Shown here one piece after another: positions 21,909 through 31,155 of a stretch of 40,000 nt of DNA. Under the pieces are notes generated by a model. The model had not been told where the DNA came from and made no database searches. It worked only from the letters and a program-made list of their open reading frames with translations. The DNA is from Veillonella dispar (GTDB lineage: Bacteria > Bacillota > Negativicutes > Veillonellales > Veillonellaceae), in assembly GCF_900637515.1 (NCBI RefSeq), contig NZ_LR134375.1, positions 601,952 to 641,951 on the forward strand, written 5' to 3'. A program made the translations under genes and the position numbers. The first letter of the stretch is position 1. Every line of letters begins with the position of its first letter.

Positions 21909-22339
21909 TGGCAGATAATTTACTATTACCAAAACAAAATAACGATGCCCTTATTCCTGATACAGTGAATTACATTGAACCGTCGCATACGTATGATGTT
22001 GATTTTAGAACGGACAGCCAAATTAGGGGCTATGCAGATAAGTTGCGAGCTATGGAGCAAGCAATTTATAAAATCATCAATACGGAGCGATACCAATATA
22101 TCATTTACAGTTGGAATTACGGCATCGAACTACAAGACTTATTCGGACAGCCAATTCCGTATGTGTACGCTGAGTTACAGCGACGCATAGAAGAGGCTTT
22201 ACTGAATGACGACAGAATAACTAAAGTATATAACTTTGATTTTAGCCACGAAGGTGGCGACGTCATGGTTGAGTTTGATGTAGATACCATCTATGGTACG
22301 CTACAAAAAATCAAGAAAGGGGTGAAAGGTATTGTATGA
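21908..22339 (+). CDS. XkdS-like / gpW-like baseplate wedge protein
   Basis: Size and PBSX synteny, directly upstream of the baseplate J gene. Confidence 0.5.
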   Translation: MADNLLLPKQNNDALIPDTVNYIEPSHTYDVDFRTDSQIRGYADKLRAMEQAIYKIINTERYQYIIYSWNYGIELQDLFGQPIPYVYAELQRRIEEALLNDDRITKVYNFDFSHEGGDVMVEFDVDTIYGTLQKIKKGVKGIV

Positions 22340-23411
22340 GCATATGACGGCCAATCGAATTGAAAAACGAATGCTCGATAGAGTTAAAGATGAATTCGAT
22401 CGGCGCGAAGGTAGTGTTATATACGATGCTACAGCTCCGGCAAGCGTTGAGTTTGCAGAACTATATATCCTAGCCGATGTGATTCTGAAACAAGCGTTTG
22501 CAACGACCGCAGACCGGGAATTCCTAATACTTCGTGCTGCGGAGTTTAATATTTACCCGGAACCTGCAACGCAAGGCGAATTTGAAGCTCAGTTCAATAT
22601 GGAAGTACCGATTGGCTCCAGGTTTAATTACAATGAATACAACTTTGTTGTAACAGAGGTAATCGACGACGCGGAACATAAGTACAAACTTAAATGCGAA
22701 CAGTACGGACGCACTCCTAATGCGACCACAGGTGATATTACGCCAATCCAAGGTATTAATGGCCTTACCTCTGCTAAGATATTGAAGAATATCACGCCTG
22801 GCGAAGATGAAGAAGACACAGAAGTATTCCGAAAACGGTACTTTGATGCTTTGAAATCAAAAGCCTATGGCGGTAATGGTGCGGATTACAAGGAAAAGGT
22901 ATTAGCTATCCCTGGCGTTGGCGGTGTTAAAGTATACCGCTGTTGGAATGGCGGTGGTACCGTTAAGCTAGTTGTATTGAATAGCGACTACAAGCCTGCA
23001 GCAGATGAACTGATTAAGGAAGTAGAGAACGTTATAGACCCAGCGCCAAAAGGCAAAGGGTACGGGCTTGCTCCTATCGGCCACACCGTAACAATCGAAA
23101 AGGCTGACCCGGTAACGATCAACTACCGAATTGAAGTCACCATGATGAGCGGGCACAACGTCAATGAAATCCAAACTCTTGCCGAGAACGCTATCAAGCA
23201 ACGACTACTTCTCCGCGCTAAGGAATGGTGTAATCAAGACGAGAAGGAACATGTTATTCTTCGGACTAGTCTTGTAACGGCTTTAATGGTTGAGCTTCCT
23301 AGTGTTCTTGACGTAGGTAGGATTACTATAAACGGTGCTTCTGTTTCAAAACTCGAATTGAAGGATAATCAAATCCCAGTAGTAGGGACGATTACTTTGG
23401 TGGCAGTATGA
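22332..23411 (+). CDS. Baseplate J-like protein (XkdT-like)
   Basis: 359 aa, called on synteny. The start is TTG 22332 (after GGGGTGA) or ATG 22344. Confidence 0.7.
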   Translation: MYEHMTANRIEKRMLDRVKDEFDRREGSVIYDATAPASVEFAELYILADVILKQAFATTADREFLILRAAEFNIYPEPATQGEFEAQFNMEVPIGSRFNYNEYNFVVTEVIDDAEHKYKLKCEQYGRTPNATTGDITPIQGINGLTSAKILKNITPGEDEEDTEVFRKRYFDALKSKAYGGNGADYKEKVLAIPGVGGVKVYRCWNGGGTVKLVVLNSDYKPAADELIKEVENVIDPAPKGKGYGLAPIGHTVTIEKADPVTINYRIEVTMMSGHNVNEIQTLAENAIKQRLLLRAKEWCNQDEKEHVILRTSLVTALMVELPSVLDVGRITINGASVSKLELKDNQIPVVGTITLVAV

Positions 23412-24040
23412 TTACAGACTTTGGGATTTTTAAACGGGATATTGATATCTCACAATTCGCCGTTCCGTTAACTCGAGATTCTCGGGATATCCAAGAAGTC
23501 TATCGAGTAGAATCTGCAGAACTACAACTGCTATGGGATATCATGCTAGATATCTTTAAAGAAGAATACATCTATACTGCAGCAGATTACGGGCTTGAAG
23601 CATGGGAACAAATATTAGGCATCAATCCTCCGGATTTGACAGACACAGAAGGACGCAGAAGTGAAATACTATCAGTATTAATCGGACAGCGTCCTTTTAC
23701 TATGCCAAAAGTGCAAGAAATGCTTAACTTCAAGTTTGGCAATCATGTAGTAAAGCACTCTGTTGTATCTGATAGATACGAGTACTGGCTAGATGTAGTC
23801 GATGGATTTGAATCACAGCTCAACAATATTGTCGATTATGTGGAGCCGTTAATACCTAAGAACTTAATCATCAAGACAAAAAGTACTACAAACATTAACG
23901 GCGAAATATATGTAGGCGCTATATCTGATGTATACGAGTCCTTCCATGTCGGAGCGGCATTAGATAAGTTTGATTTCAAAGTAGGCTCTGACATTAACAT
24001 AGGCATGAGCTTCGACGTATTAGAAACAATTAAAGTATAA
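23408..24040 (+). CDS. XkdU-like tail protein (DUF2313-like, gpI-like)
   Basis: Follows baseplate J with an overlapping stop. Called on size and synteny. Confidence 0.5.
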   Translation: MITDFGIFKRDIDISQFAVPLTRDSRDIQEVYRVESAELQLLWDIMLDIFKEEYIYTAADYGLEAWEQILGINPPDLTDTEGRRSEILSVLIGQRPFTMPKVQEMLNFKFGNHVVKHSVVSDRYEYWLDVVDGFESQLNNIVDYVEPLIPKNLIIKTKSTTNINGEIYVGAISDVYESFHVGAALDKFDFKVGSDINIGMSFDVLETIKV

Positions 24041-24049
24041 GGAGAACAC

Positions 24050-24955
24050 ATGGCTTCTATTTATCCAAATACACGATTAACCAATTATGGCCGTGAGTTA
24101 ATCGCAAGATCGCAAGCAACCGGCAAGAAGTTGCAATACATTAAGCTAGTTACTGGTGACGGTCAGCTTGATAATCAAAATATCGATACTATGACCTCTG
24201 TACTAGCCCCAAAATTAGAGTGCCCGTTCACTTCGGGCGGTGAATTCGTAGGCGACGGCCAATTTAGAATCGAATTTGCGGTTAGTAACAGCACAGTGAA
24301 TAGCGGGTTCTTCGCTAGAGAGTTAGGCGTATATGCTAACCTTGAGGGTGAATCTGATTCCGCTGCTAAACTAATTGCATATAGCAACGGCGGAAACTAT
24401 GCTTCCTATATTCCGTCTAAGGAAACACCGATTAATTCTAAAGTGTTTTCTTTAGATGTAGTAATCGGTAACTCTACGAATGTAACAGTTAAGAAGATTG
24501 ATGCGGCATACCTCACACGAGGGGCATTAGATTCTCATAACCGTGATACAAGCGCACACTCAAATATCACAGACCAAATTAAGGCGATTCTCGGAAGTGC
24601 GAACTGGAACGACTCCCCGGCCAGTACACTTGTTACAATTAAAAACTTATTAGGACAAGGCGCTATCGTGGCATCTAAGCTCGACGCTAATGCGGGGTTT
24701 GTAAAGTTCGCTAATGGTTTCACTATCCAGTGGGGAATAGGAGGGCAGGATAACGTGACCAAAAGTGAAGTAAGATTCCCAATCAAATTCACAACGCTAT
24801 TTATGGCCAACGCTATTGATGCATACTGGTCAGGTTCTGACACGCCTAGGTATTTCGCTAACTCCGTGTCGGAGAGCAACTCCACTAAAGCCGTATTTTC
24901 GGCAAGCGATAGATACGCTGCTTCTTATTACTGGTTTGCTCTAGGGATTATCTAG
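24050..24955 (+). CDS. Tail fibre protein: tail-collar-type N-terminus plus currently expressed C-terminal tip A
   Basis: AAGGAG RBS. The N-terminus TNYGRELIARSQATGKKLQYIKLVTGDGQ resembles the Mu S / P2 H tail-collar fibre domain. The variable tip starts after IQW (codons 226-228). Confidence 0.8.
   Translation: MASIYPNTRLTNYGRELIARSQATGKKLQYIKLVTGDGQLDNQNIDTMTSVLAPKLECPFTSGGEFVGDGQFRIEFAVSNSTVNSGFFARELGVYANLEGESDSAAKLIAYSNGGNYASYIPSKETPINSKVFSLDVVIGNSTNVTVKKIDAAYLTRGALDSHNRDTSAHSNITDQIKAILGSANWNDSPASTLVTIKNLLGQGAIVASKLDANAGFVKFANGFTIQWGIGGQDNVTKSEVRFPIKFTTLFMANAIDAYWSGSDTPRYFANSVSESNSTKAVFSASDRYAASYYWFALGII
24727..24734 (+). repeat. Putative recombination core A (CCAGTGGG) inside the fibre gene
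   Basis: Identical 8-mer in the same reading phase (cCAG TGG g = Gln-Trp) as cores B and C. Confidence 0.6.
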
Positions 24956-25185
24956 TTACCTATGATAATGAACATAATCTGATCACCAACGCCTTGCTGT
25001 CCTCTATAGTCACTATCCTTATATGTTAGCTGATTTCTAGAAGTCGATAAAATGATTTCAGAAAATGAATAATCACCGTTATATCTTGCGGTAGAAACGG
25101 CGATAGTCTTGTTACTGAACTCTACCGGGTAGCGCACAGTCCAAGGCTTAGGTTGATTATAGGCGTTAAATAATACCCACTGGAT
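24952..25185 (-). other. Silent tail-fibre C-terminal cassette C (no own start or RBS)
   Basis: The minus-strand frame is open from 25185 to the TAG (complement of 24952-24954). It reads IQWVLFNAYNQPKPWTVRYPVEFSNKTIAVSTARYNGDYSFSEIILSTSRNQLTYKDSDYRGQQGVGDQIMFIIIGN, paralogous in length and pattern to tip A. Confidence 0.7.
25176..25183 (-). repeat. Putative recombination core C (CCAGTGGG on minus strand)
   Basis: The plus strand reads CCCACTGG. The core is in frame with Gln-Trp at the head of cassette C. Confidence 0.6.
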
Positions 25186-25186
25186 A

Positions 25187-25429
25187 TTAATTCTTCCCTA
25201 CGGCCATCCAAACAAAACTACCTGTGTCCGCTCTGTCGGTTAAGAATCGGATGGTGTTTCTATTAGCTTGAGAGAACCCACTGTTCCAAGTAATAAAACA
25301 TTTTGCGCCGGAAGTATCAACACTAACAGAGTCATCGGTGGCTAATGCAATTAGCACAGTGCTGCTAATCGGTAGCGAAACATCTTTATAGTATCTATTA
25401 GAATCAAACCAAGTTATCCCCCACTGGGG
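25187..25429 (-). other. Silent tail-fibre C-terminal cassette B (no own start or RBS)
   Basis: The minus-strand frame runs from 25429 to the TAA (complement of 25187-25189). It reads PQWGITWFDSNRYYKDVSLPISSTVLIALATDDSVSVDTSGAKCFITWNSGFSQANRNTIRFLTDRADTGSFVWMAVGKN, paralogous to tips A and C. Confidence 0.7.
25420..25427 (-). repeat. Putative recombination core B (CCAGTGGG on minus strand)
   Basis: The plus strand reads CCCACTGG. It lies 4 nt from the recombinase stop codon and is in frame with Gln-Trp at the head of cassette B. Confidence 0.6.
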
Positions 25430-25431
25430 AG

Positions 25432-26277
25432 TTACTTTAATAATTCTATGGACTTGCGTAGCTCACGAATGGTCTTATGTGTGTATACCCTAGTAGTGAT
25501 ATCACCTTGTTTATGGCCTAGCAAGGAGCGTAATGCGTTAGGTGGCGCTACCGCATCAAGTAGACTTGCAAATGTGTGCCGGGTATCGTGGATAGTATGC
25601 TTGCAGTTAAGCTGTTTCATAATATTATGGAAATGCTTACGGAACGTTGTATAGCTGATAGTGAATAGGTAATCGCTAGTATGTAGTTGCTCTATTATAG
25701 GCATGATGCGGTGATGAATGGGAATGATACGACCTTCACCGGCTTTAGTTTTGGCGTGTCTTACGATAAGGTATGATGATCGTCTATTGATATCTTGCCT
25801 ACGTAAGTTAAGGAGCTCACCTATGCGTAGTCCGGTGTAGAGCAGTATTAAAATCATGCGGGAATAAGATGTATCTATTGCCCATAATTTGTTGATTTGT
25901 TGGCGAGTGAATACTCTTCTCTTAATCGTCGGTCTATTGGGCCCTAGATTTAGGTGCAGGGCGTAATTAGTGACAGAGTAATCTCTAATGATTGCGTAAT
26001 TGAATAATTGATTAAGTAATGTACGGACTTTCTTACAAGATGAGTAGGAAAGTCCTTTTACGCGCATGGAATCAATCACATTTTGAAGGTGCTGAAAATG
26101 AATATCCGTGATAGACATATCCGCTATGTTGGATATGTGTTTAAAAGCAATGTGATAAGACTTAACAGCGCTATTAGAAATAGTCTGAGAGTGAATAGGC
26201 AACCACTCGTTAAATAGTTGCCTTAATGTAATGGTATTGCGTTGTCTACGTTTTAGTATAACTGCGTAACGGCGCAT
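25432..26277 (-). CDS. Tyrosine site-specific recombinase (candidate fibre-tip invertase)
   Basis: GGAGGTG RBS. Catalytic residues occur in order: R (TGLRIGEL), K (HAKTKAGEG), HxxR (HDTRHTFAS), H (LLGHK), Y (TRVYTH). It is the only clearly coding minus-strand gene in the phage part of the window. Confidence 0.85.
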   Translation of the reverse strand: MRRYAVILKRRQRNTITLRQLFNEWLPIHSQTISNSAVKSYHIAFKHISNIADMSITDIHFQHLQNVIDSMRVKGLSYSSCKKVRTLLNQLFNYAIIRDYSVTNYALHLNLGPNRPTIKRRVFTRQQINKLWAIDTSYSRMILILLYTGLRIGELLNLRRQDINRRSSYLIVRHAKTKAGEGRIIPIHHRIMPIIEQLHTSDYLFTISYTTFRKHFHNIMKQLNCKHTIHDTRHTFASLLDAVAPPNALRSLLGHKQGDITTRVYTHKTIRELRKSIELLK

Positions 26278-26303: not shown

Positions 26304-26696
26304 ATGAATCAATATGTATTTGTATTGAACGAAATGGGCGAACGAATTACGTCCTATGTTGATAATACAGTAACGCAAGAGCAGTTGTTAGCAACTGCAA
26401 AACAAGAATGGCCAGATGCAAAGGATTATATTTACTCTACAGACGGCGATAGTATGCTAGATGAATTTATGAAAGGTAAATTCTATGTAAACGGCAAGTT
26501 TGTCGAACCTGCTCCGTATGTTCCTACCAAGGAGGATAAGATTAATGCGATTAAATCTGAATACGAGCCGCGCTTCAAATCCTTAGAAGAGGCTCAGCGC
26601 AGATTGTTATTAATGGGAAAACCTACTGGGGCCATTAGTGCACAATATATCAAATTAAATACCGAAATGGTAACACGTATTAAGGAGGTACAATAA
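26304..26696 (+). CDS. Hypothetical protein (possible fibre assembly/chaperone role by position)
   Basis: 130-aa ORF with an AAAGGA RBS. No recognisable motif. The functional guess rests on position only. Confidence 0.35.
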   Translation: MNQYVFVLNEMGERITSYVDNTVTQEQLLATAKQEWPDAKDYIYSTDGDSMLDEFMKGKFYVNGKFVEPAPYVPTKEDKINAIKSEYEPRFKSLEEAQRRLLLMGKPTGAISAQYIKLNTEMVTRIKEVQ

Positions 26697-26697
26697 T

Positions 26698-26862
26698 ATG
26701 CCTAAATATATCGGAGAAAGTAAAGTACCTGTTATGGAATTTTGTGAGTACTGCTGGGAAGTGCTTAACGAAGACGGAACATGCCCAACAGAGGGCTGTG
26801 TCCATAATGATTTAATGGACGAGGTACACGAAGATGAAACTACCAGTCCTACACAACTTTAA
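26698..26862 (+). CDS. Small zinc-ribbon-like protein (54 aa, absent from the ORF track)
   Basis: ATG 26698 lies 9 nt after AAGGAGG and 2 nt after the upstream stop. It translates to [54 protein letters not shown], with CxxC ... CxxxxC. TAA at 26860-26862. Confidence 0.5.
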   Translation: MPKYIGESKVPVMEFCEYCWEVLNEDGTCPTEGCVHNDLMDEVHEDETTSPTQL

Positions 26863-27172
26863 TGCAATTAAAGGGGAAGTGATTTCTCTTAGCATTGGTT
26901 ATAACAATGTTGTTGCAAGTGAAAGTTTGTTCGCCTGTGTTCGTAAATATTCTCCGGACGAAGAATATAAAGCTAAGTTCGATATTGACGTGTCTACCGA
27001 CGAGCTAGAAAACGATGAAGCATCTAAAATCACTCTTTCGTTGGATACAAATGCCCTAGCAGTCGGTAAATACCAATGGGACTTATTTATTTGGAATGGC
27101 GACCACCCTATCAAATGTCTAGTTAAAGGACAAATTACTATAGTCGAAGGCGTTAGCAATAGGGGGAAATGA
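26834..27172 (+). CDS. Hypothetical protein (small beta-rich, fibre-associated by position)
   Basis: 112-aa ORF. Its stop overlaps the start of the collagen-like gene. Confidence 0.4.
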
Positions 27173-28488
27173 TGGACGAACTACACATTCACGAAAATAA
27201 CGAAACGATCAAAGTTAAAGACAATACTCAAATCGTTAAACTGCAAGGACCGAAAGGAGACCCTGGGCCACAGGGCCCTCCTGGTCCTCCAGGTCCACAG
27301 GGTGAACCTGGTCGAAATGGTATTGACGGAATAAACGGAGAACAAGGGATACAGGGCATTCAAGGCCCGCCTGGTATTCAAGGACCTCCTGGTAAAGATG
27401 GTCTTAAAGGTGAACCCGGAACTCCTGGACAACGTGGAGCGGATGGCGAACGAGGGCCACAGGGGCCACCTGGACCGAAAGGCGAACCGTTTAAGTTCTC
27501 TGACTTCACACAGGAGCAACTTAATGCACTTAAAGGACCGAAAGGTGATAAGGGCGAACAAGGACCTCCCGGTCCTCCTGGTACTGGTGGCACAGGTGGA
27601 GCAGACTTGTCGGATTATACTAAGAAAGCTGACGCCGAAAATCTTTATCTTAAGAAAGTAGACCTAAGAGCTTATCTTACTATGCTCGGTGACCCTAAAT
27701 ATGCACTTAAAACAGAGTTAAATAATTATTTATCTAACACAGATGCGGCTAATAATTATGCTCAAAAAGGCTGGGCAACTCAAACGTTTGCATATAAAGG
27801 TGATTTAGGTGTCTATATTAAGAAATCCGAAATCGGTCAATATGCATTAACACCTGGTGATGCTTCTAGTCGTTACGTCAATAAATTAGAGGGGCAGTCC
27901 TTCGCTCAAAAATCTGAATTAAGTGATTATGTTAAGAAAACTGAAATTAATCAGTATACATCAAGTACACAAGGGCCGCCAGGGCCTAAAGGAGAGCCGT
28001 TCAAATATTCTGACTTCACGCAAGACCAACTTAATGCACTTAAAGGGCCAAAGGGTGATAAAGGCGAGCCGTTCAAGTATTCTGATTTTACGGCGGAACA
28101 ATTACTAGCATTAAGAGGGCCTAAAGGAGCCCCTGGGAGCGGTGGGGGACAAGTAACTTCACAACCAGTCGAAATATATGAAGTTGTTTGGGGTAATGCT
28201 ATAGCCAGTAACCCTGGTGCTGATAGAGGTTACTTAGCGTTTGACCCCTTAACTGGTTGGGGATACTTACATTTTGATTTTAAATTGAAAACCCCTTCTG
28301 GTAATGGCAATATGGTAGCATCGCTTCCACCAAATGCGCCAGTTGCAGTAAGGCTAATTGAAAGAAGCGTTGATGCAAGTAACAATAGCATTTATGTTGA
28401 ACGAAATAGCCGTATAATTAAGGGTTGGGGTGTACCGGCGAACATGCGGTATATTATTGATATTATTGGTTATTGGAGAAAGGTGTAA
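27169..28488 (+). CDS. Collagen-like repeat tail fibre / receptor-binding protein
   Basis: 27 uninterrupted Gly-X-Y triplets (about 27247-27489). Three copies of the EPFK(F/Y)SDFT..QL.AL(K/R)GPKG module. Fibre-type D/E-L-S-x-Y-x-K-K repeats. A ~110-aa non-repetitive C-terminal domain. Confidence 0.75.
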
Positions 28489-28821: not shown

Positions 28822-29128
28822 TTCAATTAAACAATCTTATAAATCTGTGAGGGTGGCTAACATCCACCCAACAGGTATTTTAGCTACTCGGGCGCTAGTG
28901 TTTATTATGCTAGTGCCTATTTTATTGGTGGTCACTCAATATGTTATGTCCTTTATTAGTGGGTACGTGTCAGACGAAGCGAATAAGCTGATTAATGTAG
29001 GCATCAATATTATTGACCACATATTCATACCTAGTGTCTTAACAGCCATTGTAGGCTTCTTAGGGCTTTGGGTAGACCAAAATAATAATGGTATTCCCGA
29101 TAGATTAGAAGAGGAGGATAAACGATGA
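28787..29128 (+). CDS. Holin (two TM segments, charged C-terminus)
   Basis: TM1 is ALVFIMLVPILLVVTQYVMSF and TM2 is IFIPSVLTAIVGFLGLWV, with the tail RLEEEDKR. The stop overlaps the amidase ATG (ATGA). Possible starts are ATG 28787 and ATG 28796. Confidence 0.65.
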   Translation: MNFMNIPQKLINSIKQSYKSVRVANIHPTGILATRALVFIMLVPILLVVTQYVMSFISGYVSDEANKLINVGINIIDHIFIPSVLTAIVGFLGLWVDQNNNGIPDRLEEEDKR

Positions 29129-29643
29129 AAGTATTTATTAATCCTGGCCACGATATCAACTTAGATAGTGGCGCAGTTAATCCTGTATATGGAACACGCG
29201 AATGTGACGTGGCACGTGATGCGGGCAAGATGTTAGCGTGTTACTTGGAAACAGCTGGATGCGATGTGCGCACCCTACAAGATGATGATTTAGGGCTTGT
29301 ATGTTCCGAAGCTAATTCTTGGGGCGCAGATATCTTCGTATCGCTTCATTGTAATGCGTTTAACACAGAAGCCCGTGGCACTGAGACTTTGTATAAGTCT
29401 TTTAACGGGCAACGATTAGCAAACGACATTCAAAGTCAAATAATCCGCAGCATTAATACGGTAGACCGTGGAGTTAAGAAACGTGATGACCTTTGGGTGC
29501 TAAATGGTACGGACGCAACTGCTGTATTAGTTGAAATGGCGTTCATTGATAATGAAGAAGATCATACTATGCTGACTAATGATTTAGATACTATCGTTCG
29601 TGCCATTGCTAGGGGGATTACTGACTACGCAGGAGGAATATAA
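29125..29643 (+). CDS. N-acetylmuramoyl-L-alanine amidase endolysin (Amidase_3)
   Basis: MKVFINPGHD..DSGAV, E in the RECD region, and SLHCNAF are typical of the CwlA-type zinc amidase. Confidence 0.85.
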   Translation: MKVFINPGHDINLDSGAVNPVYGTRECDVARDAGKMLACYLETAGCDVRTLQDDDLGLVCSEANSWGADIFVSLHCNAFNTEARGTETLYKSFNGQRLANDIQSQIIRSINTVDRGVKKRDDLWVLNGTDATAVLVEMAFIDNEEDHTMLTNDLDTIVRAIARGITDYAGGI

Positions 29644-30414: not shown

Positions 30415-31155
30415 CTGGTTCGCGACGTAGTCGCGAATCATAAAACCACCCGCTATGCGGGTGCGGCAACGAAAGTTATACAAAAAAATCACCTTGCTTA
30501 AGTATAATGTAGGTGTTCAAGCCGCATTATATACAAAAGAAAGGTGATTTTATATGGCAACAAAGACACAGAGCCTTGCGCACACAAAATGGTTATGCAA
30601 ATACCACATAGTATTTACACCTAAGTATAGACGTAAAGTTATATATAATCAATACAGAAATAGTTTACGTGAAATATTGAGACGTTTATGTGAATATAAG
30701 GGCGTCAAGATTATAGAGGGGGAGCTTATGGCTGATCATGTGCATATGCTAGTATTAATCCCGCCTAAAATATCAGTATCATCTTTTATGGGATACTTAA
30801 AAGGGAAAAGTGCACTAATGATGTTCGATAAACACGCAAACTTAAAGTATAAATTTGGAAATAGACACTTTTGGTCCGAGGGTTATTATGTTAGTACAGT
30901 AGGTTTAAATGAGGCTACAGTAAAGAAATATATACGTGAGCAAGAGTTACATGACCAAATGAAAGATAAACTTAGTGTAAAAGAATATGAGGACCCTTTT
31001 AAGGGTAGCAAGTAATACACATCCCCTTTAAGGGGAACGTTACGAGTCAATGGCTATGCGGCTTGAACGTAGTGAAAGCCAGCGCCTTTAGACGCTGGCC
31101 TAGTACTACGGGCTTATAGCCCGTGAGCAAACCACCCGTTTTACGGGTGGTTCTG
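30415..31155 (+). mobile_element. IS200/IS605-family insertion sequence (tnpA only); ends approximate
   Basis: A Y1 transposase gene flanked by subterminal hairpins at 30419-30437 and 30447-30463 (left) and 31078-31099, 31108-31124 and 31130-31152 (right). The CCACCCG...CGGGTGG hairpins at the two ends are similar. Confidence 0.6.
30554..31015 (+). CDS. tnpA: IS200/IS605 family Y1 (HUH) transposase TnpA
   Basis: 153 aa. LAHTKWLCKYHIVFTPKYRRK, HUH motif HVHMLV, and the catalytic-Tyr region SEGYYVSTVG. Confidence 0.9.
   Translation: MATKTQSLAHTKWLCKYHIVFTPKYRRKVIYNQYRNSLREILRRLCEYKGVKIIEGELMADHVHMLVLIPPKISVSSFMGYLKGKSALMMFDKHANLKYKFGNRHFWSEGYYVSTVGLNEATVKKYIREQELHDQMKDKLSVKEYEDPFKGSK

Follow-up and report, generated by a model that had tools for sequence, protein, structure and literature searches.

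A likely shufflon that switches the receptor-binding fibre tip of a Veillonella prophage with a contractile tail by multiple inversion

The exchange of receptor-binding modules by DNA inversion has been described in the Rin shufflon of Bifidobacterium breve and B. longum prophages, in which the gene for the receptor-binding protein (RBP) combines a constant N-terminus with variable C-terminal cassettes (Mavrich et al. 2018, PMC6109161). The cassettes are 95-100 amino acids (aa) long, the crossover sites are 11-bp rix sequences, an armless Xer-like tyrosine invertase is encoded on the far side and the phage has a separate integrase; the authors likened the RBP modules to those of the lactococcal phages TP901-1 and 1358 (PMC6109161), and the system was later reported in Eggerthella lenta prophages (PMC8778435). 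Here, we analyse a 40-kb stretch of Veillonella dispar DNA (the window) that covers the tail module of a prophage, a contractile-tail phage with a baseplate, in which a tail-fibre gene, two silent inverted C-terminal cassettes and a tyrosine recombinase gene lie side by side (Table 1). We are confident that this locus is a multiple-inversion switch, or shufflon, for the receptor-binding tip of the phage. The mechanism class, the architecture and the biological logic of such a switch are known already; what is new is the host clade, the phage type, the tip domain, the crossover site and the recombinase lineage. A literature search, which left most subscription journals outside its coverage, found no description of a Veillonella phage shufflon.

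How far does the likeness to Rin go? Both systems consist of a constant N-terminal fibre or RBP gene followed by several promoterless C-terminal cassettes. Every cassette has a short crossover site at its 5' end, and one of these sites lies inside the expressed gene. In both, the gene for an armless Xer-like recombinase of ~280-300 aa converges with the fibre gene and has its 3' end right beside the outermost site, and a canonical integrase is encoded separately in another part of the phage; in both, the isomers were found by genome comparison. The Veillonella locus thus shows the hallmarks of the Rin-type architecture: promoterless C-terminal cassettes, an armless recombinase distinct from the integrase, and inversion at 5' repeats with natural alternative genes. 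For comparison, we recovered 64 Rin loci from IMG/VR, a public viral-contig collection, by the rix pattern; in the Rin locus L290, the genes for a 296-aa tyrosine recombinase and for the RBP enclose five rix sites, the first of which is 5 bp away from the stop codon of the recombinase gene. Judged from sequence, however, the likeness is one of architecture, not of lineage: the locus would work like Rin yet belong to a separate lineage, because the recombinase, the sites and the tip folds differ. The Veillonella recombinase is 20% identical to that of L290, no closer than to the integrase of its own phage (22%, in a relative), and a phmmer search with it against the ORFs (open reading frames) of the 64 rix-bearing loci returned nothing at E <= 0.001 and one marginal, unrelated match at E 0.007, so we rejected orthology to Rin. 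The rix site is an asymmetric 11-mer, TTCCCTAACCC (PMC6109161, seen in L290), whereas the Veillonella core is CCAGTGGG, a near-palindromic CCAGTGG(G) within Gln-Trp-Gly codons. The Veillonella tips measure ~75 aa and resemble gp53 of phage AP22, the Rin tips 95-100 aa and resemble the TP901-1 RBP; and the Veillonella phage, with its baseplate and contractile tail, lives in a diderm Negativicute, whereas the Rin hosts are Actinobacteria.

Other inversion systems share parts of this design. In Gin (Mu), Cin (P1), Pin (e14), Min (p15B) and gin (FRphi), as in Veillonella, inversion swaps the C-terminal part of a fibre, and these switches change host range. Mu and P1 carry U/U' chaperone genes inside the invertible DNA. 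Gin, Cin, Pin and Min are serine invertases, whereas the Veillonella enzyme is a tyrosine recombinase, in which only tyrosine-recombinase domains and no serine recombinase (resolvase/invertase) domain were found, and its cassettes are single small domains. The R64/IncI shufflon (Rci, sfx, pilV) has in common with our locus a tyrosine recombinase encoded at the flank, multiple inversions at short sites and the swap of an adhesin C-terminus; its target is a conjugative pilus adhesin instead of a phage fibre. The sfx site is 19 bp long and has a spacer of 7 bp, and just one of its arms is conserved; Rci, at 384 aa, is longer than the Veillonella enzyme. The Veillonella site, in contrast to sfx, is a two-armed imperfect palindrome. 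Type I restriction-modification systems have hsdS shufflons (surveyed in PMC9881135 and PMC7672463) that likewise show silent inverted partial genes beside an expressed gene and a small adjacent tyrosine recombinase, which exchanges specificity domains at short repeats within coding sequence, but these target a DNA-specificity subunit and not a virion protein, and their inverted repeats are usually longer. A 2026 preprint describes a tail-fibre shufflon in a BV01-like Phocaeicola vulgatus phage, with three non-homologous cassettes overlapping the distal end of the fibre gene, a flanking recombinase, a 10-bp directional motif, TGGGAGAACT, and all configurations present in read data (PMC13596623). 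That system differs from ours in its motif, its larger cassettes (1.7-kb region), its six isoforms and its host phylum, and the text gives no recombinase class. Multi-state fibre shufflons run by serine invertases are also on record, namely Min of p15B (cited in PMC6109161) and gin of Enterobacter phage FRphi (PMC13418256). The first-pass annotation, made from the sequence of the window alone, had not recognised the combination found here as a described phage system; its novelty was overstated, because Rin (PMC6109161) and these multi-state serine-invertase shufflons had been described. Its remark that the invertible DNA holds no chaperone gene was correct, as there is room only for the three tip cassettes; none is described in the invertible segment of Rin either (PMC6109161).

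The anatomy of the locus is compact. ORF listing, translation and a core search bear out the fibre gene, the two inverted silent segments with their translations and the three core copies as the first-pass annotation had given them. The invertible region of 706 bp is filled without spacer by the three cassettes of ~230 bp each: the stop codons of tip A and cassette B overlap in the palindrome CTAG (24952-24955), a single nucleotide separates the stop of cassette C from the first codon of B, and just 4 bp lie between the outermost core and the stop codon of the recombinase gene (25432-25434), which the outer arm of site 3 overlaps. At the 5' ends of cassettes B and C, we looked for an ATG or a ribosome-binding site and found neither, and the only ORFs listed for them are internal fragments (56 and 61 aa) that start with GTG. 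A promoter and terminator scan of 23.8-27.3 kb gave counts not above those in shuffled sequence.

The strongest evidence for switching is that the alternative products exist in nature. The junctions predicted in the first-pass annotation turned up both as proteins and as DNA: the fusion of 24050-24727 with the reverse complement of cassette B is 100% identical to P0220 over all 302 aa, and the fusion of the same segment with the reverse complement of cassette C is 100% identical to P0206 over all 305 aa, the latter present on 20 contigs. Locus L336 (from SRR22519746, with 12 further similar places) is 100% identical to the window over 3177 bp on the left, 2033 bp on the right and the three cassettes, and L340 over 827 bp on the left, 2033 bp on the right and the three cassettes; nevertheless, both have the arrangement C+ B+ A-, in which the whole segment is inverted, as expected from recombination of site 1 with site 3. 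Four further loci (L342-L344 and L012) read B+ A- C-, the product of site 1 and site 2, with cassette B expressed in frame, while L338 reads C+ A+ B-, a second-step product. Cassette C is expressed in frame in P0206, L336 and L340, and tip A, expressed in the window, is the silent, inverted cassette beside the recombinase gene in L336, L340 and L006. Together with A+ B- C- of the window, an arrangement that L004 (sample ERZ28635873) shares, four arrangements of this cassette set are seen, so the description of the system as three-state in the first-pass annotation fits the protein isoforms but falls short for the DNA.

According to the mechanism we propose, the fibre would consist of constant codons 1-226 plus a ~75-aa tip of the AP22-gp53 type that starts at Gln-Trp-Gly. 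The adjacent armless recombinase would bind inverted pairs of cores, exchange strands within the 8 bp of identity and flip the DNA between them. Recombination of site 1 with site 2 would bring tip B in frame and that of site 1 with site 3 tip C, while inversions between an inner '+' site and a '-' site would reorder the silent cassettes. As only the cassette fused to the constant part would be translated, subpopulations of the lysogen and of the phage progeny should differ in their fibre tip and presumably in receptor specificity, a form of host-range bet-hedging. We infer that switching occurs at an appreciable rate within one lineage and that the tips differ in the receptors they recognize.

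Where exactly does the exchange take place? For a broader view, we collected 100 loci via the recombinase, of which 76 could be decomposed into cassettes and, with the window, make up the 77 loci analysed here. The core CCAGTGGG occurs exactly three times in the window, against a mean of 0.36 in shuffled sequence, where three copies were reached in 1 of 100 shuffles, and all three copies contain an in-frame Gln-Trp pair (Q227-W228 of the fibre, 24728-24733). The consensus of 141 unique sites, T-n-n-CCAGTGG-G-[G/T]-A, is an imperfect palindrome of ~17 bp centred on the G of CCAGTGG, and the sole asymmetry of this 7-bp core is its central base pair. At every site of the decomposed loci, the left flank is fixed and the right flank moves; among isomers, the base at -1 remains with the left flank and the one at +8 follows the tip, which places the crossover inside the 8-bp CCAGTGGG. 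Every breakpoint in the 77 loci falls inside this core. Cassette C contains a near-copy, CCCACTG at 25277-25283, which lacks the final G and the flanking arms and is conserved among tips of the C type. None of the breakpoints in the 77 loci falls there, and therefore the arms matter besides the core.

The cassettes are not arbitrary pieces of coding sequence. Tip A matches Pfam PF21882 Gp53-like_C ('Putative tail fiber protein gp53-like, C-terminal') at E 1e-8 (36 bits, cut-off 24.9) and cassette B at E 1.1e-5 (26.3 bits against the same cut-off); tip C alone stays below the PF21882 threshold, but a profile of C-type tips aligns end-to-end with that of the other tip families in hhalign (94.4% probability, E 8.8e-8), so that both silent segments are homologous to fibre C-termini, as had been claimed from the window. 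The pooled tip profile matches residues 88-163 of the 164 residues of PDB entry 4MTM (E 2.5e-5), by its database description the gp53 tail fibre of Acinetobacter phage AP22; the match begins exactly at QWG and ends at WIAIG. The homology of the tips to 4MTM starts at the QWG switch point, so that each cassette forms a complete distal domain of the fibre and switching takes place at the domain boundary. The AlphaFold2 (AF2) model of P0206, the natural C-tip fibre, has a mean pLDDT (predicted local distance difference test) of 42.6, with ~70-76 across residues 211-305, and when the C-tip model was searched against the PDB with Foldseek, 4MTM and two structures of the R2 pyocin fibre made up the top three matches, though their E-values (1e-3 to 5e-3) are marginal. 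The fibre matches PHROG tail-fibre families strongly (phrog_7037, E 3e-35), whereas the tail-collar N-terminus proposed in the first-pass annotation amounts to a sub-threshold match to Pfam PF12571 (19.2 bits, cut-off 23). We also considered a diversity-generating retroelement and dropped it: no reverse transcriptase is encoded close by, and the tips fall into discrete families that diverge over their full length.

The complete tyrosine recombinase gene that had been read from the window is confirmed. The protein matches Pfam Phage_integrase PF00589 (E 1.6e-19) and the SAM-like core-binding domain PF14659, its best solved relatives are the XerC-like 4a8e and XerA 5hxy, and the catalytic residues of Xer-type enzymes of known structure have aligned counterparts in R151, H230, R233, H255 and Y265; NCBIfam returned Xer models, all sub-threshold. 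Its 281 aa comprise the core-binding and catalytic domains only and leave no room for an arm-binding domain. The protein collection searched contains 932 relatives of the recombinase and 3421 of the fibre. Public sources name the close recombinase relatives Veillonella, and a scan of species-representative genomes found the recombinase only in Veillonella parvula, V. dispar and other Veillonella. A nucleotide search of GenBank phages with the 4.9-kb region gave no match, and the nearest proteins in GenBank phages are ordinary integrases of <=35% identity. Mid-genome 'integrase' matches in Fusobacterium and Butyrivibrio phages were set aside, being ordinary lysogeny-module integrases of ~340-360 aa with no link to a fibre gene.

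We take the adjacent recombinase to be the catalyst. Could an invertase of the host or of another phage instead act in trans, leaving the Xer-like enzyme with some other job such as dimer resolution? There is precedent for invertases acting in trans, such as Mpi of Bacteroides fragilis (cited in PMC6109161), and catalysis is assigned to the neighbouring enzyme by inference. Nevertheless, we consider this explanation very unlikely, as the recombinase gene forms the fixed outer boundary of the shufflon, with its stop codon inside the outer arm of site 3, and as this geometry recurs in the independently evolved Rin locus, where rin ends next to the first rix crossover site. Furthermore, recombinase, cassettes and adaptor move together: the recombinase adjoins the cassettes in 77/77 decomposed loci, on two phage backbones that differ in their baseplates (Mu gp48-like versus P2 I/GpU/gp25-like). 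The adaptor (24557-24727 in the window; compare L014:5366-6274) is ~97% identical in the two groups of phages, against ~25-36% for the remainder of their fibres and 36% for the fibre overall. Together with the cassettes, the recombinase and the downstream ORFs, it behaves as a single exchangeable unit.

The wider sample speaks for a programmed switch. The 77 loci contain 2-4 cassettes each in many arrangements, with ~10 tip families at 60% aa identity, all tips starting with QW and ending in a hydrophobic stretch followed by Gly, and different tips occupy the expressed slot in related loci. In 77/77 loci a run of '+' cassettes is followed by a run of '-' cassettes, a pattern that inversion between inverted sites preserves. 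Pure isomers are frequent: a single flip is the sole difference between L019 and L021 (flanks 99.9% and 100% identical, cassettes 100%), and L095 and L100 share four cassettes, all 100% identical, in differing arrangements. We further examined 80 IMG/VR contigs. Of these, 22 (among L024-L097; for example L056, L063, L079, L093, L030, L048 and L069) have an end inside the shufflon, at most ~1 kb from where the recombinase gene stops, and 7 of these 22 start 0-5 bases from a core. Since a de Bruijn assembler would break contigs at the cores if two arrangements coexisted in a sample, these ends are indirect evidence, consistent with mixed arrangements within samples.

The same loci also speak to a second alternative, that the arrangements arose without any programmed switch, through ordinary homologous recombination or mosaic exchange among co-infecting phages. 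Alleles of the cassettes have indeed been exchanged between lineages (in L006, A and C are 99.6-100% identical to those of the window and B 85%), cassette number varies from 2 to 4, and the whole module is common to two backbones. We give this explanation hardly any weight, however, because a core of 8 bp, in which all breakpoints lie, is too short for efficient RecA-dependent exchange, because the isomers are 100% identical apart from orientation, and because the rule of '+' run and '-' run is obeyed throughout while contigs break exactly at cores. Mosaic exchange accounts for the diversity of the cassette pool, not for the flips.

A complete relative of 40.3 kb has a separate integrase, a 357-aa protein with the usual longer N-terminus, to which the shufflon recombinase is 22% identical. 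Its gene has those for a repressor and an ImmA-like protein (peptidase M78) as neighbours and lies between the modules for lysogeny and for lysis. An exact look-up of the first ORF of the window (PcfJ-like) gave no record, and the lysogeny module was reached via relatives. The right end of the prophage falls at ~30.1-30.5 kb within the window, because a transposase and host genes follow the phage genes there, while its left end is outside the window; near the right end, the only one that the window includes, CCAGTGGG is absent, and the recombinase gene itself sits between tail-fibre genes, in line with the earlier claim that the enzyme is something other than the integrase. Next to negligible, then, is the idea that the recombinase is the prophage integrase or a leftover of it and the minus-strand segments are decayed, functionless fibre fragments: PHROG and public sources do label the gene 'integrase', and a second integrase of this prophage copy would be out of view beyond the left end, but the gene lies within the tail-fibre module and lacks an arm-binding domain, the complete relative has its integrase elsewhere, the core is missing from the right end, and the supposed fragments are intact, in frame and found in the expressed position in natural isomers.

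Several considerations weigh against reading the locus as an active shufflon run by its own recombinase. The isomers come from different samples and prove inversion in very recent lineage history, given the 100% identical flanks, rather than its rate or its occurrence within a culture. Adjacency and co-inheritance are the basis for naming the catalyst, and the constant presence of the recombinase is partly by construction, the loci having been gathered via a recombinase search. The separate integrase is known from a close relative and not from the prophage copy in the window. On the side of function, a difference in specificity between the tips is presumed, the AF2 model is poor outside the tip and the Foldseek E-values are marginal.

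A multiple-inversion switch of the fibre tip has practical consequences. Little work has been done on the phages of Veillonella, an abundant commensal of mouth and gut, and the phage family described here is very common in public data. The host range of such a phage cannot be read from a single prophage sequence, and short-read assemblies will break or freeze arbitrarily at the shufflon locus; host-range prediction and phage engineering in Veillonella must reckon with the cassette pool of ~10 tip families.

Beyond this, we suggest, with slightly less than even confidence, that the central base pair (CCA-G-TGG versus CCA-C-TGG) sets the orientation of the site, that the locus is a portable, independently evolved and seemingly undescribed tip-switch module of adaptor, 2-4 tips and armless recombinase that moves between unrelated Veillonella contractile-tail backbones, and that the same enzyme could occasionally delete. 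Two-cassette loci (L022, L028, L036, L058, L074, L089, L268 and L269) occur in the sample, V. parvula UTDB1-3 has a two-cassette version as well (NZ_CP019721.1, 1,094,505-1,102,353), and L009:4853-5108, from the recombinase stop to the constant part of the fibre, is a deletion variant in which only tip C remains. At its recombinase-side junction, the left flank of site 2 is joined to site 3, GAATTAATA|CCCACTGG|GGAGTTACT, as if inverted sites had recombined in the 'wrong' alignment. The core being palindromic but for its central base, the enzyme may occasionally delete, although L009 is a single contig in which misassembly is possible. If the suggestion holds, occasional deletion would explain the one- and two-cassette loci and the hybrid junction of L009, and the locus would offer a tractable natural system for a question posed in the Rin paper, how armless tyrosine invertases favour inversion over deletion. 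As a second, non-orthologous phage-borne armless tyrosine invertase with a very short near-symmetric site and many natural isomers, it should be useful for studying the control of directionality.

Table 1. Positions of the shufflon and of neighbouring features in the window
Feature	Position	Strand	Description
Baseplate_J	22332-23411		upstream of fibre gene
Mu gp48-like protein	23408-24040		upstream of fibre gene
Tail-fibre ORF	24050-24955	+	301 aa
Constant part of tail-fibre gene, codons 1-226	24050..24727	+	N-terminal attachment region and conserved ~58-aa adaptor (residues ~170-226)
Recombination site 1	24722..24739	+	core CCAGTGGG 24727-24734, within codons Ile-Gln-Trp-Gly at tip start
Tip A, cassette expressed in the window	24728..24955	+	QWGIGGQDN...WFALGII, then TAG
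Silent cassette B	24952..25185	-	IQWVLFNAYN...MFIIIGN, 77 codons and stop; site 2 core 25176-25183 (-)
Silent cassette C	25187..25429	-	PQWGITWFDS...VWMAVGKN, 80 codons and stop; site 3 core 25420-25427 (-)
Shufflon recombinase	25432..26277	-	281-aa Xer-like tyrosine recombinase, convergent with fibre gene
Three small ORFs	26304-27172		130, 54 and 112 aa; downstream of recombinase
Collagen-repeat fibre	27169-28488		downstream
Amidase	29125-29643		downstream
IS200-family (Y1) transposase	30554-31015		past prophage lysis genes, at or adjoining right attachment junction
Host genes	from ~31.2 kb		Dyp peroxidase, threonine synthase, class I Glu/Gln-type aminoacyl-tRNA synthetase

The surroundings of the shufflon add some minor observations. 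The three small ORFs are conserved and always lie between the recombinase and the collagen-like fibre; NCBIfam gave no match for them or for the shufflon fibre. The 112-aa ORF shows a non-significant PHROG likeness to a family of L-shaped tail-fibre assembly proteins (E 0.06) and is, on this sequence likeness, a candidate fibre chaperone encoded outside the invertible DNA. The collagen-repeat fibre gene (the same gene in L004-L023) encodes 301 to 742 aa among phages with an identical recombinase protein, presumably through expansion and contraction of its Gly-X-Y repeats, and is a second, independent source of fibre variation. Finally, in a related complete phage, the early region, whose equivalent lies upstream of the window, carries between a DUF2800 nuclease and a single-stranded DNA (ssDNA)-binding protein a gene for a YadA-type trimeric autotransporter adhesin with head, stalk and anchor domains (L117:3909-5447), possibly a lysogenic-conversion adhesin.

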